Assembly: GCA_041664925.1 (NCBI GenBank)
Contig: JBAYJV010000002.1
Location: 72,302 to 136,301, forward strand
Length of the DNA: 64,000 nucleotides
Source: Minisyncoccota bacterium
GTDB lineage: Bacteria; Patescibacteriota; Minisyncoccia; JBAYJV01
Reading direction: 5' to 3'
This document shows, in pieces, positions 3,963 through 64,000 of the stretch. The position numbers and the translations under genes were made by a program. The notes beneath the pieces are model-generated. The model was not told the origin of the DNA and ran no database searches. It saw nothing but the letters and a program-made list of their open reading frames with translations. Position 1 is the stretch's first letter. Each line of letters starts with the position of its first letter.

Positions 3963-3990
3963 TTGACAAGGTTTATAATTTTGATAGTAT
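3963..3990 (+). promoter_or_regulatory. promoter TTGACA-16-TAGTAT driving an ORF-less GC-rich transcript
   Basis: consensus -35 at 3963-3968, -10 at 3985-3990. Confidence 0.45.
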
Positions 3991-3996
3991 GGTGAT

Positions 3997-4238
3997 ACGG
4001 TTTCGCTAGGGACCCTAGGGAGGTAAGGGGACATTAACTGGAGACAGCAGGTGCTGCTGGTAGATCGAAGGAGGAGGTCCCGGGCAGGGACCGAACGCCC
4101 ACGATCCCTTCGTGAGCATACAGGCCAGATACTCTATTGCCTTAGGGGAATGAGCTGTCATCAGGCGAGTTAACTAACCAAACCTGGCAACTCTAGCGAA
4201 CACCAATGACCGAGGAAAGACTCCTCGGTCATTTTTTA
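3997..4238 (+). ncRNA. candidate structured small RNA (about 240 nt), identity unresolved
   Basis: GC-rich, no ORF, own promoter and terminator (GACCGAGGAaagacTCCTCGGTC+T6 at 4207-4238); 5' GGTTTCGCTAG can pair 3' CTAGCGAAC-ACC; internal hairpins CAGCAGgtgCTGCTG and GGTCCCgggcaGGGACC. Confidence 0.4.
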
Positions 4239-4320
4239 TATAATAAGTTCCAACTAAATCGCATAGCCATCCCATACAAAAAAAGCAAGGAGATTAATCC
4301 TTGCTTTTTATTTTTTAATT

Positions 4321-5270: not shown

Positions 5271-5459
5271 GTGGGCAAGGAGCTTACGCAACTCATCGGA
5301 CAAATCGTGGATATCGTCATGTCTGATGGCGCAACAACGAGACTTGGAAGAAAACTTGAAAAGATTGATGGGAATAGGATTTACTTCTCTTTTAAAGGAC
5401 AAGAGGAGGTTCTTACGCTTGAAGAAATAGATGGAATTTATCCATCAGACGATGATTAA
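5271..5459 (+). CDS. hypothetical small protein (62 aa), possibly Sm-like fold; GTG start
   Basis: GGAGG 7 nt upstream of GTG; IGQIVDIVMSDGATTRLGRKLEKIDGNRIYF; terminator GGGACTGGaaagCCAGTCCC+T8 at 5474-5501. Confidence 0.5.
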   Translation: MGKELTQLIGQIVDIVMSDGATTRLGRKLEKIDGNRIYFSFKGQEEVLTLEEIDGIYPSDDD

Positions 5460-5555
5460 GCAACAGAAGTCATGGGACTGGAAAGCCAGTCCCTCTTTTT
5501 TATACATTTTTATTATGATTGATTTTTTGTTTAACTTGTTATATAATTGTTAGCA

Positions 5556-15638: not shown

Positions 15639-17015
15639 TTAAAACGTGAATCCTTTGTCTCCAGTAATTGTTTCTTTGAAATTCTTTTGAGTTTTGTCAG
15701 GAAAGGTAACGCTAATTTCTACTGGTAGCTCGTCAATACCAGGTTGTTTTTGAATCAGGAGGCCATATTCATTTGTTTTTATATTTTGAGGCAAATCATA
15801 TTCCAAAACAACCGCGTGATCTGAGGAAAGAGGCACTTTTACTAAACCAGCCATAAAAGTTTTTCCAAATTCTTTTCCATACTGCGGATCTGTTGAAAGA
15901 CCGCTGATATTCGTAAACCACGAGCCTTCTGGAGTATAAACCCTAAGCCAGCTTTGATAATCTCTTACCAACCAGCTTTTTTGTTCGGCGCCATGAGAAT
16001 AATTAATCGTTAATCTTGCTTTAGGCGTGGCGCTTGATAAATCAACATCGTATCTGAGGCTTCTTTCAATAAAATAATCAGCTTTAAAAGCATTGACATT
16101 AGCATCAACGACAAAAACATAGTCAGAACTGATTTGTTTTATTTCTCCAGACCAGCCCAATCTTTGAACATCTTTTTGAATTTCTGGATTAGTAAAATAT
16201 AGTAAAATGTCTTTATTTTCTAAGTGTTCGCTGCCAATTGAAATCAATTTTAATGATTTTAAAGGATTCATGGCAATGGTTTTATCTATCAGAATCTGCG
16301 CTAAATCTTTTAGAATATTTTTTCTGTCTGTGCGAGCAATGCCCTGATCTTTGAAATCAATTTCAACTTGTTTTTCCAAAGTGAGCAAGAAATTATCTTT
16401 ATTCACTGTGAGACCGTAGTCTGGTAATTCAACAGGACCATGAAGTTCGAGTAATGCGCCAAGCACTTCAGGCGTAATCGCAATAACGCCATCGAATTGT
16501 TCTTGGCCGCCCTGAGCATGATAAAATTCAATCATTTTCTGCGCAGCAGTAGGGAAGTCAGGAGACCAATTGCCATCCCGAAATTGCCAATTCTTAACGA
16601 ATAAGTATTTATTTATCGGTTCAGGCGGTTCTATCTGAGTTGGCGTTGAAAGTTTTATATCAAAAACAGCGGTGTCGTAAAATTGAAAATCTTTCGGCTT
16701 AGCGCTTTCTATTTTGGCAGTCGCAAAACTAGAAACGAATCCGCCAGTCGGACGAAGTTCTAGATTGTTTTGGAAAAGCATCAAGTAGCTCATTTCCTTT
16801 TCAAATCCCGCTGCTTTTTTTATTAAAGAAAAAACGCTTGGCTGTTCTTCGGGGGCGACCGTTTTTATTTCAGGATTTTCCAAGTAATAAGTTTTTAGTT
16901 CTTTTGCCTTATATTCCTTAGAATTGTTGCTTGTGCTCAAGACAAAAAGAGCTAACCCGATTAGAGCAACAATAAAGGAAAAAGTTGTAACAAATTGTAT
17001 TTTCAGTTTTGACAT
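15639..17015 (-). CDS. DUF4012-domain membrane-anchored protein
   Basis: N-terminal TM then LMLFQNNLELRPTGGFVSSFA...GVIAITPEVLGALLELHGPVELP resembling the DUF4012 signature. Confidence 0.55.
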   Translation of the reverse strand: MSKLKIQFVTTFSFIVALIGLALFVLSTSNNSKEYKAKELKTYYLENPEIKTVAPEEQPSVFSLIKKAAGFEKEMSYLMLFQNNLELRPTGGFVSSFATAKIESAKPKDFQFYDTAVFDIKLSTPTQIEPPEPINKYLFVKNWQFRDGNWSPDFPTAAQKMIEFYHAQGGQEQFDGVIAITPEVLGALLELHGPVELPDYGLTVNKDNFLLTLEKQVEIDFKDQGIARTDRKNILKDLAQILIDKTIAMNPLKSLKLISIGSEHLENKDILLYFTNPEIQKDVQRLGWSGEIKQISSDYVFVVDANVNAFKADYFIERSLRYDVDLSSATPKARLTINYSHGAEQKSWLVRDYQSWLRVYTPEGSWFTNISGLSTDPQYGKEFGKTFMAGLVKVPLSSDHAVVLEYDLPQNIKTNEYGLLIQKQPGIDELPVEISVTFPDKTQKNFKETITGDKGFTF

Positions 17016-17967: not shown

Positions 17968-18173
17968 TTGACATTTATTCTTTTAAGAATATAATTGATT
18001 TATCAATTGAATACTTCCCAAGACCGTTAGGGTTCCGGCATGCCGGAATTAAACATCCTACGCAGGAAAACACATAGATTTATTTCAATCTGTTTTGCGG
18101 TCTTTGGATCGCAATTTTTAATTGTATAAAACATCAAAGGTCGAAAGTTCGGATTTGTGTAAAATCCAATCAT
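17968..18173 (+). promoter_or_regulatory. rplJ promoter (TTGACA-16-TATAAT) and roughly 170-nt structured 5' UTR (L10-leader-like)
   Basis: consensus promoter 17968-17995; long untranslated leader with palindrome TTCCGGCATGCCGGAA before rplJ, position typical of L10(L12)4 autoregulatory leader. Confidence 0.45.
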
Positions 18174-27430: not shown

Positions 27431-27477
27431 AACCCTGAAGTACAATAAATTGACTTCAGGGTTATTGATTGCGTAAT
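27431..27477. repeat. hairpin repeat AACCCTGAAGT-N11-ACTTCAGGGTT + ATTGATTGCGTAAT
   Basis: near-identical inverted copy at 49988-50063. Confidence 0.5.
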
Positions 27478-27505
27478 TTTTCATAAATTCAAAAACACAA
27501 TCAAT

Positions 27506-27643
27506 AAAAAAAGAGGGGGTCCGACCTACTCGTCAGACCCCCCTGGCAAGAGACCTTTGCCGCAGCGCCGGATCATCGGCAAGCAGACTGGCAAAGGAGG
27601 TATGAGAGATACGGCAGGCTCTCGTAAAGTCTCCGCACTCTCA
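27506..27643 (-). ncRNA. candidate small RNA (about 135 nt) with perfect-consensus promoter and intrinsic terminator
   Basis: minus sense TTGACA(27677-27672)-16-TATAAT(27655-27650); GC-rich body with CCUCCUUUGCC anti-SD-like stretch; terminator GGGGGGTCTGacgagtagGTCGGACCCCC+T7; no ORF. Confidence 0.45.
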
Positions 27644-27731: not shown

Positions 27732-27765
27732 GAGATAAATAGAACTTAAAATAATATATTAATAT

Positions 27766-35280: not shown

Positions 35281-35355
35281 TGTCATCCTGAGCGCAGCGA
35301 AGGATCTCTCTTTTTTACTTGCTATGGGATTCTTTGTCTTCGCCTCAGAATGACA
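35281..35355. mobile_element. MITE-like 75-bp element TGTCATCCTGAGCGCAGCGAAGGATCTC...TTCGCCTCAGAATGACA
   Basis: perfect 12-bp inverted ends; related to 27766 and 62567 copies. Confidence 0.5.
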
Positions 35356-49956: not shown

Positions 49957-49987
49957 GTGGTGGGAGAAAAGCACTTCTCCCTTTTTT

Positions 49988-50063
49988 TATTGATTGCGTT
50001 TTTGAGCTAAGCGAAGATTACGCAATCAATAACCCTGAAGTCAATTCATTGTACTTCAGGGTT
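49988..50063. repeat. double-hairpin repeat (TTATTGATTGCGT..ACGCAATCAATAA then AACCCTGAAGT..ACTTCAGGGTT)
   Basis: inverted copy of 27431-27477. Confidence 0.5.
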
Positions 50064-62139: not shown

Positions 62140-62556
62140 ATGAAACTATTAAAAGTATATACCGACGGAGCTTCTCGTGGTAATCCCGGACCAGCTTCAA
62201 TTGGGATTGTTTTTAAAGACGAATCAAATAAGATTATTTGGCAGGAACATAAAGAAATTGGCGAAACAACCAATAATGAAGCTGAATATCAGGCGCTTAT
62301 TTTTGCCATGAAACATGTTAATTGCCATCATCCTGAAAAAATTATTTTTCATTCCGATTCAGAGCTTATGATTCGCCAAATGAGAGGGGAGTACAAAATA
62401 AAAGAGCCGAATATCCAGAAGCTCTTTCTTGAAGCCTGGAATCGCAAAATTGATTTTGCCAGACCAATTGAGTTTGTGATTATTCCCAGAGAAGAAAATC
62501 AAGAAGCCGATAGAATGGCAAACAAAGCACTGGACCAAGGAAAGCTGGAAATATGA
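62140..62556 (+). CDS. rnhA: ribonuclease HI
   Basis: YTDGASRGNPGPASIGIV, TNNEAEYQALIFAM, HSDSELMIRQM (DEDD catalytic residues). Confidence 0.85.
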   Translation: MKLLKVYTDGASRGNPGPASIGIVFKDESNKIIWQEHKEIGETTNNEAEYQALIFAMKHVNCHHPEKIIFHSDSELMIRQMRGEYKIKEPNIQKLFLEAWNRKIDFARPIEFVIIPREENQEADRMANKALDQGKLEI

Positions 62557-62566
62557 CACTTCAAAG

Positions 62567-62635
62567 TGTCATCCTGAATAAAATGAAGGATCCCGTATGT
62601 TCCCTGAGATTCTTCGGCTCCACCTCAGAATGACA
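62567..62635. mobile_element. MITE-like 69-bp element TGTCATCCTGAATAAAATGAAGGATCCCG...CCACCTCAGAATGACA, followed by a second truncated copy (62649-62685)
   Basis: same family as 27766 and 35281. Confidence 0.5.
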
Positions 62636-62748
62636 AGTTTTAGTTTATTGTCATCTTGAGCAAAGCGAAAGATCTCGTTTCTTTGTTAAAATTTATTCAC
62701 AAAAAAAATGAGAGGACTTCTTGTCCTCTCTTGCTTTATACCACTAAC

Positions 62749-62952
62749 CTATCTAAGAACTTGGGATCTTTGAGATCCTTGTTCAATACATACGTTTTCA
62801 AAATAAGCATCGAGGCCTTCTGTTACAAAATCTGTGAGTGTTTTCCTTTCAATAGCTGCTCTTATTTTAAAAGCAGTAACATGACAAGGAAAAAAATAGG
62901 TCGTAGACCGAACTCCTTTTCTCTTACGATCCCTTTTCTTTAGGCCAAACAT
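62749..62952 (-). CDS. small basic protein, possible ribbon-helix-helix (CopG/Arc-type) DNA-binding protein
   Basis: RBS AAAAGGAGGAAAG; KGVRSTTYFFPCHVTAFKIRAAIERKTLTDFVTEGLDAYFE (beta-strand then two helices); terminator GAGAGGACaagaaGTCCTCTC+T8 on minus sense. Confidence 0.4.
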   Translation of the reverse strand: MFGLKKRDRKRKGVRSTTYFFPCHVTAFKIRAAIERKTLTDFVTEGLDAYFENVCIEQGSQRSQVLR

Positions 62953-63014
62953 CTTTCCTCCTTTTAAAGAACCATTATTAGTTTATCTTAAAATCCACAA
63001 AAGTCAAAAAAAAG

Positions 63015-63566
63015 AAGATTAAAAAAGGACTCAGCTGACCTGAGTCCTTGTTGTTCCGAAGAGAAGATAGAGAACTAGTAAGGGATTGCCCTTTGGCGTT
63101 CCCTCGACAAGGGTCTGTTTCCATTTTAGGCTGGACTCGCCTAAAATTCACCTTGTTCAACTTTCTGACTCCGACCAGGAGACAGAATGATATCCCCGAT
63201 GGGATATTGTCCTAGCTACCAATTCTCGAGGTTTCCGGAAACTGGGAATCCTCACGTCCCTTCTCTTCGAGATCGCGAGATGCTTCGTCTCGCGCCTTTC
63301 CACGAAAAAGCAAGAAACGATCGTGCCTAAACCCCTTTGAGCGTAGAGCACATACTCGTGCCTTCTCTGTTATATCCAAGTTGCGCCTTAGATACAACGG
63401 CACTTTCTTGATCCTTATAGCGCCAGCGCAACAGTAGGATCAGACGTTTCCTCTAGGGTTTTGAGAAAAACCCAGCTTCTTCGTGTACCGAGTCATCCCG
63501 AGATGATCAGCTTCCGCCGCATCAAATCGGTATCGGATCTTCGAATATTATTTAGGAACTAATTAT
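63015..63566 (-). ncRNA. candidate large (about 550 nt) GC-rich structured RNA or long structured leader, identity unresolved
   Basis: minus-sense promoter TTGACA(63600-63595)-16-TAGAAT(63578-63573); GC-rich body with only short overlapping low-complexity ORFs; many local GC hairpins; ends at AAGGACTCAGgtcagcTGAGTCCTT + T6 (63048-63016). Confidence 0.4.
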
Positions 63567-63605
63567 ATAACCATTCTAGTCAATAAATATTTTTTGTCAA
63601 TACCT

Positions 63606-63636
63606 AAAACAAAACCCCGGAATACCGGGGTTTTTA
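63606..63636. terminator. bidirectional terminator AAAACCCCGGaataCCGGGGTTTT
   Basis: perfect GC stem flanked by A/T runs on both strands. Confidence 0.55.
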
Positions 63637-63684
63637 TTGAATAATTTTATTTAAATTATTGAAGTCCGACTTCAATAATTTTTA

Positions 63685-63966
63685 TTACTTTCTAACTGTA
63701 TCGCTCAAGATTTTTAAGTGATCTTCGCTTTTTCTCAAGATATCGTGAATACTAAACAATACTATCCAAAGCTCACAGATAACTCGCCAAATGAGATTTC
63801 CAAAGATTAAAACCAAAAAACCGGCAACAATGCTAATTCCATTACCTTTTATAAAAAAATCTATTGCCCAGATGATTAAAGCCGCAATTCCCACAAGATA
63901 AACAAATCTCAAAAGAAAAGAGCTTACCATCTTCTTGAATGTTAAATAGTTTATTAATTTTTCCAT
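63685..63966 (-). CDS. DUF4282-like small membrane protein
   Basis: two TM helices (LVGIAALIIWAIDFFI; IVAGFLVLIFGNLIWRVICELWIVLF) in the arrangement of DUF4282 proteins. Confidence 0.45.
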   Translation of the reverse strand: MEKLINYLTFKKMVSSFLLRFVYLVGIAALIIWAIDFFIKGNGISIVAGFLVLIFGNLIWRVICELWIVLFSIHDILRKSEDHLKILSDTVRK

Positions 63967-64000
63967 AGTATATAAAATTACATTTATAATTCAATTATAC

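Follow-up and report, generated by a model that had tools for sequence, protein, structure and literature searches.

Positions 63600-63021 on the minus strand of a 64,000-nt stretch of contig JBAYJV010000002.1 (GenBank assembly GCA_041664925.1, forward-strand positions 72,302 to 136,301; hereafter the window), from an uncultured Paceibacterota bacterium of the Candidate Phyla Radiation (CPR), are, taken as a whole, best explained as an independent gene encoding a structured non-coding RNA (ncRNA) of approximately 540 nt composed of two tandem folded modules, an explanation that we regard as probable. We consider it a bona fide structured ncRNA gene because it has its own promoter and terminator, because in most genomes the gene downstream of it is convergent, and because its homologues evolve in a pair-preserving manner. 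Only the 3' part of the RNA, of ~215 nt, is conserved, the 5' ~290 nt being lineage-specific, and the locus itself is a strain-variable slot; both aspects lay beyond the view of the first-pass annotation, which was made from the letters of the window.

The unit is comprised, in this order, of a promoter, a GC-rich body of ~540 nt and an intrinsic terminator. The predicted promoter, TTGACA-16-TAGAAT (63600..63573), matches at 11 of 12 positions and is the best of the region; from its position, transcription would start at ~63566. The predicted terminator consists of AAGGACUCAGGUCAGCUGAGUCCUU followed by U6 (63049..63021), with the 10-bp GC hairpin and its T-run at 63049..63025. The GC content reaches 0.44-0.50 over positions 63000-63500, compared with 0.357 in the whole window. 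The GC-rich interval, the consensus promoter and the textbook terminator had all been pointed out in the first-pass annotation and were found again, as were the local GC hairpins that it quoted; its short overlapping ORFs (open reading frames) are also there, though at least six of them, of 34-64 aa and on both strands, rather than the three it counted, and none exceeds 64 aa. The locus is not an assembly artefact, as its 586 nt recur with 100% identity on the JGI/NCBI contig and on L002, a Logan assembly made independently. The minimum free energy (MFE) of the 552-nt transcript is -213.5 kcal/mol, against -160.8 +/- 5.9 kcal/mol for 100 dinucleotide shuffles (z = -9.0), and its two halves fold significantly apart from each other (5' 295 nt, z = -5.3; 3' 236 nt, z = -4.6).

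Syntenic loci (numbered L002 and onwards) were gathered with the neighbouring dus gene as anchor, and represent about 10 lineages whose Dus proteins are 53-91% identical. A metagenome Dus alignment contributed 80 loci, most of them too distant and only L004 and L005 of use; the homologues that proved informative were obtained through individual Dus relatives. RecJ, used as an anchor in species genomes, revealed no close relative. Comparison with nhmmer showed that the 3' part of the window RNA matches L097 (E ~3e-5), and a profile united four distinct sequences, hereafter type 1: window 63300-63015, L097:6299-6574, L099:4656-4962 and L102:4342-4643. As judged by their Dus identities, these members span three genus-level clades, and each of the three relatives has its own TTGACA/TAnAAT promoter and terminator.

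In the window, the type-1 fold forms domain B (63057..63272, minus strand, ~215 nt), supported by nhmmer homology to L097, L099 and L102, by a covariance model and by covariation. Its closing helix P1 (63269-63259 with 63067-63057; AGAGAAGA:UCUUCUCU) pairs a purine strand with a pyrimidine strand and encloses a junction of four hairpins, in the order P2, joiner GAGAARGUA, P3, P4, joiner GGGAAACAC, P5 and the 3' strand of P1. The P2 hairpin (63253-63228) exposes a loop GUUUCC (63242-63237) that pairs, as a pseudoknot, with GGAAAC (within 63122-63115) in the strand between P4 and P5. The outer P3 helix, AGCU:AGUU, encloses an inserted hairpin (63207-63190) and an inner hairpin (63185-63165); P4 (63146-63124) is formed by TTTTAGGCGAGTCCAGCCTAAAA, one of the hairpins quoted in the first-pass annotation, and P5 (63105-63080) has the form UUGYYGAGG-N18-CCUUAC, with a spacing of exactly 18 nt in all four sequences. 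The conserved joiners of type 1 are GAGAARGUA, GGAAAC or ACAAC, UUGYYGAGG-N18-CCUUACU, and AUCUUCUCU. A long-range helix RGUAR:UUACU, resembling P4 of ribonuclease P (RNase P) RNA, was left out of the model, as it overlaps P3 and P5 and displays one-sided changes only. Small ORFs (AUGGG motif) located in the 5' region were also set aside upon inspection, being unconserved in length and sequence and having no ribosome-binding site (RBS), and so was a reading as CsrA sponge, the enrichment in GGA motifs not being striking by a rough count.

The four type-1 sequences were aligned by hand (alignment A7, in which N replaces the gaps to make MAFFT preserve the columns). This alignment contains 41 pairs in 7 helices, with 97.6% of the cells paired; 17 of the 41 pairs have changed on both sides, including 7 of the 8 pairs of P4. 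In the pseudoknot, three sequences pair as GUUUC:GAAAC and L097 as GUUGU:ACAAC, so that two of its 5 bp are compensatory. None of 500 shuffles reaches any of the main measures of pairing, and sliding the partners by 1-3 columns lowers the paired fraction to 44-52% with 0-3 compensatory pairs. A covariance model of the trimmed type-1 core (R1), searched over 0.8 Mb, scores the window sequence at 134 bits, the window being in its training set, and finds only its four training members. Positions 63272-63057 thus carry the fold and joiners that define type 1, an assignment that is partly circular, the window having helped to define the family, and that receives independent support from the nhmmer match to L097. 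The location also agrees: the sequence lies between dus/DUF4282 and the convergent rnhA-recJ genes, with a sigma-70-type promoter and an intrinsic terminator.

No described class of RNA accounts for the interval. Rfam 15 (4227 models) was run at gathering thresholds and at E<=10 on window 62600-63800 and on the homologues; nothing was found in the interval at either level, and the extended contig and the homologues returned only tRNAs and sub-threshold terminator look-alikes, those near the interval being confined to 63580-63700. ARAGORN detected no tRNA and no transfer-messenger RNA (tmRNA) over 62500-64000. CPR RNAs are within reach of the Rfam search, because a tmRNA was detected at 89 bits in the CPR locus L025. 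Taken together, the ARAGORN and Rfam negatives rule out tmRNA, and signal recognition particle (SRP) RNA, 4.5S or large, is excluded in the absence of any match to the Rfam SRP models. For 6S RNA, again without Rfam match, the size (~540 nt, 250-300 nt in relatives) and the branched junction with pseudoknot differ from a rod of ~180-200 nt. No RNase P model matched at gathering, nor at E<=10 on window 62600-63800 or L102. The covariance-model searches thereby uphold the first-pass annotation in setting aside RNase P, tmRNA, SRP and 6S RNA, and its suggestion of a novel large ncRNA gained ground through the compensatory changes that alignment with syntenic genomes revealed in five helices and the pseudoknot. 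OLE, ROOL, GOLLD, HEARO/omega RNA and raiA gave no covariance-model match even at E<=10, and blastn found nothing in 50,697 phage and 72,556 plasmid records. Type 1 is an RNA family new to Rfam, of a kind, the stand-alone structured bacterial ncRNA of unknown function, that is already known.

The 5' module (RNA positions ~1-295, 63566-63272, ~290 nt) is found in the window genome only, and is comprised of a 5' hairpin, a domain A and a linker hairpin. The 5' hairpin, predicted by MFE folding at RNA positions ~31-79 (63488..63536), corresponds in position to a variable 5' hairpin found before the closing helix of related RNAs. Domain A (63301..63485) is a closed multi-hairpin, held by CACGAAGAAGC:GCUUUUUCGUG and AGGAAACG:CGUUUCUU, for which neither nhmmer nor a covariance model found a homologue in the fetched loci. 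The linker hairpin GCGCGAGACGAAGCAUCUCGCG (63274..63295), which separates domains A and B, is not a terminator since no U-tract follows it. A 12-nt direct repeat, AGAGAAGG(C/G)ACG, at 63368-63357 and 63266-63255 places a copy of the P1 5' strand within domain A, and hints at a possible partial duplication. The 5' module is a lineage-specific addition, and the window RNA a fused two-module version of about twice the size of its relatives.

The same genomic position displays a variable content among relatives: type-1 RNA, a second type of RNA, other GC-rich units, small genes resembling the ribbon-helix-helix (RHH) family, or nothing. Most relatives carry a compact unit on the dus strand between dus/DUF4282 and convergent rnhA, in which a TTGACA...TA(G/A)(A/G)AT promoter is followed by a GC-rich stretch of 250-300 nt free of ORFs and then by an intrinsic terminator. 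All relatives with an RNA unit have an equivalent promoter ahead of it, and the next gene after the unit is the convergent rnhA in L005, L089, L096, L097, L099, L102 and L115. The RNA units of the relatives fold better than their shuffles (z -2.4 to -5.8), and none matches Rfam.

A case of replacement is provided by L096 and L097, whose flanks are 99.4-99.9% identical over ~10 kb and whose Dus proteins are identical. Their cassettes, both ~335 nt from promoter to terminator, are unalignable and belong to type 2 in L096 and to type 1 in L097. Type 2, represented by L089, L096 and L115, has 66 pairs, 13 of them compensatory, at 93.8% paired, with 0 of 500 shuffles as good; its layout is analogous to that of type 1, in that it has a P1 and a 5' hairpin and that UYUGCC:GGCARA forms a long-range pairing. 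The slots of L005 and L107 hold other GC-rich units, the former with a type-1-like motif ...GAGGGAAU...CUUAC..., and no RNA was found in the slot of L109 and L110. A further difference between L096 and L097 is a 432-nt insertion upstream of dus (L096 4468-4899 versus L097 4899), with a 112-aa ORF on the opposite strand, which constitutes a second indel hotspot flanking dus in this pair.

In the sister species (Dus 88-91% identical) the RNA body is missing. A relic of ~60 nt, corresponding to the 3' strand of P1 and the terminator, follows directly after the DUF4282 stop codon in L004 and L084-L087, and one to three small paralogous RHH-like genes occupy the slot in place of the RNA. This arrangement would best be read as a deletion in the sister line. 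The stretch with the promoter and RBS of the small gene located downstream of the RNA in the window is kept in these species without RNA. The small genes form tandem series of two or three paralogues of 52-83 aa in L004 (2600-3133) and L084 (7434-8086), each with its own promoter and RBS, and they have in common with the 67-aa ORF of the window a motif TY.F-P.H...GKT..Q and a tail EQ..QRS.VLR; their RHH matches are sub-threshold.

Outside the fetched loci, the exact type-1 pattern (GAGG-N18-CCTTACT-N5-7-TATCTTCTC) was encountered in one of 185,579 species-representative genomes, which is the metagenome-assembled genome of L102. Looser type-1 patterns gave 53 matches in IMG/VR, which are due to chance and have no nhmmer support, and the type-2 pattern gave none. 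Vertical descent with loss would account for the presence of type 1 at one slot in three genus-level clades.

Several points weigh against this interpretation. Type 1 is represented by only four distinct sequences, and the hand alignment was adjusted to the proposed structure, with inflated pair counts as a result. The promoter, start site and terminator of the RNA gene are sequence predictions, and domain A, being a single sequence, allows no covariation test. The notion of one family with several types is deduced from synteny and a common layout: R1, over the 0.8 Mb, links type 1 neither to type 2, L005, L107 or domain A nor to the other RNA units, and since it finds just the four type-1 members, homology between the types is inferred only. 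The distribution looks very narrow, or poorly sampled, and the exact pattern is strict and could miss diverged members. The functional part of the interpretation, finally, is speculative, as the data point to no partner protein, ligand or target.

As to its role, the RNA would be a trans-acting, stably folded molecule and not a leader or antisense regulator; it would probably serve as a platform to which a protein or small ligand binds, or possibly act as a catalyst. Compact pseudoknotted junctions are characteristic of protein- or ligand-binding RNAs and of catalytic ones. The RNA would furthermore be non-essential and belong to a narrowly distributed family; a dispensable, type-specific role is suggested by the whole-cassette swaps between near-identical strains and by the repressor-like genes that replace the RNA in the sister species. 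A part in dealings or conflicts with mobile elements or phages is one possibility. In a more specific form, which we put forward tentatively and consider rather unlikely as it stands, the slot may be home to exchangeable RNA "alleles" of intricate fold and with strong promoters (type 1, type 2 and others, in some cases fused, as in the window) that act as type-specific determinants, for instance in RNA-based immunity or exclusion directed against mobile elements or phages, with RHH proteins standing in for them in the sister species; alternatively, type 1 could be a new ribozyme or ligand-binding class.

Whole-cassette presence, absence and replacement within an otherwise conserved gene order, together with a GC content foreign to the genome, may also suggest that the RNA is part or relic of a mobile or selfish element, such as a guide or scaffold RNA minus its protein gene, an intron-derived RNA, or a non-autonomous hotspot cassette; dispersed hairpin repeats adjoin other RNA units, and a GIY-YIG gene adjoins one of these in a sister species. 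We nevertheless judge this origin unlikely. The unit is not adjacent to any transposase, reverse transcriptase, nuclease or recombinase gene, no terminal inverted or direct repeats or target-site duplications surround it, it occurs as a single copy per locus in the window, the phage, plasmid and IMG/VR searches yielded no match beyond chance, and type 1 resides at the same slot in three genus-level clades.

Two explanations would make the RNA a regulator of neighbouring genes. According to the first, it is a sensor that, through its terminator, controls whether antisense transcription enters the convergent rnhA-recJ operon, for which riboswitch-controlled antisense RNAs provide precedents, and the unit indeed points at the 3' end of rnhA in most relatives and has an aptamer-like fold, a P1-closed junction with pseudoknot. 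In the window, however, the 67-aa gene and its terminator separate the RNA from rnhA; L097 and L096 have a second hairpin, the rnhA terminator, after the RNA terminator; no antiterminator was seen; and ligand-sensing cores are normally conserved, whereas here types are swapped between strains and lost in the sister species. This mechanism thus appears quite improbable. The second explanation, already raised in the first-pass annotation, is that of a cis-acting attenuator or riboswitch leader of the small downstream gene, with the terminator at 63049-63021 as expression platform. It is attractive in that an aptamer-like closed fold is followed directly by a terminator and, 70 nt further, by a co-oriented ORF, and the L107 unit also precedes a co-oriented ORF. 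It fails on synteny and on the small gene's own signals, its promoter-like site and RBS being conserved where the RNA is absent: in L089, L096, L097, L099, L102, L115 and L005 the RNA faces convergent rnhA and not a co-oriented ORF. No known riboswitch class matches, and inspection by eye of the four type-1 members, not a dedicated computation, showed no competitor of the terminator stem (antiterminator). We consider a leader function very unlikely.

That the RNA is a housekeeping RNA that has diverged strongly, such as an RNase P RNA reduced in size, is just as doubtful as the leader. The order of closing helix, hairpin, GAGAARGUA, interior, CCUUACU and closing helix recalls, by eye, the P1/P3, CR-I, CR-V and P1 elements of RNase P RNA, the promoter is strong, and Rfam found no RNase P, SRP or 6S RNA in the 64 kb and its flanks. 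Such an identity conflicts with the lack of any model signal, at E<=10, in the window RNA or L102, with the loss of the RNA in the sister species and with the swaps between strains. An RNase P RNA, being essential, would be retained in all close relatives; this one is deleted from the slot of the sister species, absent from that of L109 and L110, and replaced by a different fold between the near-identical L096 and L097. It also has no equivalent of the specificity domain, and the would-be P4 strand pairs through 3-5 bp only, which overlap P3 and P5. The proposal in the first-pass annotation of a decayed protein-coding gene of GC-richer foreign origin, to which the GC island and several short overlapping ORFs might point, can be dismissed as the least credible of all, given that the six-frame concatenated translation of 63010-63610 matches none of 5.8 billion proteins at E<=10, that the short ORFs match no Pfam family, that homologues differ by hairpin-sized insertions and by double substitutions that keep pairs, not codons, and that the dedicated promoter and terminator are conserved.

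Among known systems, the window RNA, interpreted as an independent structured ncRNA, most resembles the orphan structured ncRNAs raiA motif RNA, OLE, ROOL and GOLLD, and is a member of none. In their features as generally known, and in part as given in PMC10861870, these RNAs are likewise stand-alone, GC-rich relative to an AT-rich genome, 200-600 nt long and multi-helical, with a pseudoknot and covariation. Their function cannot be read from context either, and they were found in the same way, as a GC-rich intergenic region. The differences are that their Rfam models do not match and that the present RNA is confined to a few Paceibacteria lineages. In addition, raiA and OLE are stably inherited, whereas the window RNA is lost or swapped between close relatives; the structural comparison with these classes is that made through the Rfam models. 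The SAM-I (S-box) RNA offers a lead only: it has a P1 closing helix, a junction, a pseudoknot of the P2 loop with a downstream joiner and a terminator next to it, but there is no sequence or model match, type 1 has five helices instead of four and ~215 nt instead of ~110, and in most genomes type 1 lacks a regulated downstream ORF, with no antiterminator seen. The catalytic domain of RNase P RNA is similar in its closing helix, 5' hairpin, GAG-purine-rich joiner and ...CUUAC... strand before the 3' closing strand, and RNase P RNA differs by the absence here of a covariance-model signal and a specificity domain, the lack of conservation in the sister species and the swapping of types. Tandem small RNAs such as Qrr, PrrF and LhrC share the compact promoter-RNA-terminator cassettes, some of them serial (as in the fused window RNA and in two units upstream of dus, X1 and X2, described below); they are 50-150 nt long with an unstructured seed, in contrast to the 250-540 nt of almost fully structured RNA found here.

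CPR/Patescibacteria represent a large share of bacterial diversity. Their ncRNAs are almost unexplored, and a literature search found no description of ncRNAs in these bacteria. The locus provides a covariation-supported, pseudoknotted fold of ~215 nt, enlarged to ~540 nt, to which none of the 4227 Rfam families corresponds. Complex RNA folds are seldom newly found, and those that were have repeatedly proved to be ribozymes, riboswitches or cores of RNA-protein complexes. Strain-level swapping of whole RNA cassettes at one position is unusual for structured RNAs, and offers a handle on the roles of such RNAs in minimal-genome bacteria.

The gene order around the RNA is mreBCD, PBP2, recJ and rnhA on one side, and DUF4282, dus, mfd and pth on the other. 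The DUF4282 gene (63685-63966, minus strand; Pfam E = 7e-8) encodes a 93-aa membrane protein, and is located upstream of and co-oriented with the RNA. Its unit ends (63611..63690, minus strand) in an AT-rich inverted repeat (ATTATTGAAGTCGGACTTCAATAAT) and a predicted terminator hairpin (AAAACCCCGGTATTCCGGGGTTTT with a T-run, 63634..63611), which together would insulate the RNA gene from the DUF4282 gene. Downstream of the RNA, on the same strand (62749..63007), are found a promoter-like site (63007-62980), an RBS and the 67-aa orphan ORF (62952-62749), for which a homologue search returned only the ORF itself. The first-pass annotation was correct in reporting this ORF; its description as an RHH gene corresponds to a weak resemblance, with sub-threshold Pfam matches only (E = 0.045). 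A palindromic motif TCATTCTGAGG-N-GAAGAATC is present in two copies in the window (62608-62633 and 35328-35353, minus strand; 0.02 expected by chance), one of them between rnhA and the terminator of the 67-aa ORF, and a similar GTCATCCTGAACGCAGTGAAGGATCC lies near 27765.

Unknown RNAs may be numerous in this lineage, as at least four further promoter-RNA-terminator units without Rfam match were found in ~75 kb. The first, W1 (window 3965-4240, plus strand), has a TTGACA-17-TAGTAT promoter, ~250 nt of GC-rich (up to 0.59) ORF-free sequence and a terminator GACCGAGGAAAGACTCCTCGGTC with a T-run; it has no Rfam match at gathering or E<=0.05, and no nhmmer relative in the fetched loci. W2 (window ~27676-27505, minus strand), which has no Rfam match either, is composed of a TTGACA-17-TATAAT promoter, ~130 nt of GC-rich sequence and a terminator GGGGGTCTGACGAGTAGGTCGGACCCCC, and is followed by a dispersed hairpin repeat. 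X1 and X2 (L003 7927-8165 and 8334-8740) are located on the same contig, 1-2 kb past the end of the window and upstream of dus, and again neither matches Rfam. X1, of ~200 nt, is closed by AGGAAGGGGUAG:CUACCCCUUCCU and conserved in L088; X2, of ~370 nt, has a promoter matching at 12 of 12 positions and is conserved in sister species (L084 5012-5362), with a GIY-YIG gene after it. The dispersed element, of ~55-105 nt, consists of an inverted repeat ATTGATTGCGT...ACGCAATCAAT, in some copies followed by a GC hairpin, and is positioned right after terminators in the manner of repetitive extragenic palindromes (REP-like); five copies occur in ~75 kb (L003 8155-8260, 8732-8833 and 182-234; window 27459-27515 and 49982-50035). 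On a distant CPR contig (L026 1819-2290, Dus 42% identical), a TTGACA promoter, ~450 nt at 51% GC and a terminator are found directly downstream of dus; this unit has no Rfam match and is unrelated to type 1 by nhmmer or covariance model.

Three sub-threshold Rfam matches were recorded elsewhere in the window, all on the plus strand. A hammerhead HH9 match at 16911-16989 (24.9 bits, gathering 52, E = 0.029) is probably noise. Positions 5388-5500, moderately GC-rich and with short ORFs only, resemble PrrB/RsmZ (30.3 bits, gathering 44, E = 0.0014), which are protein-sequestering small RNAs. The match of 17999-18129 to the ribosomal protein L10 leader (35.6 bits, gathering 44, E = 0.016) probably corresponds to a genuine but divergent L10 leader, located just after a perfect TTGACA-16-TATAAT promoter at 17968.

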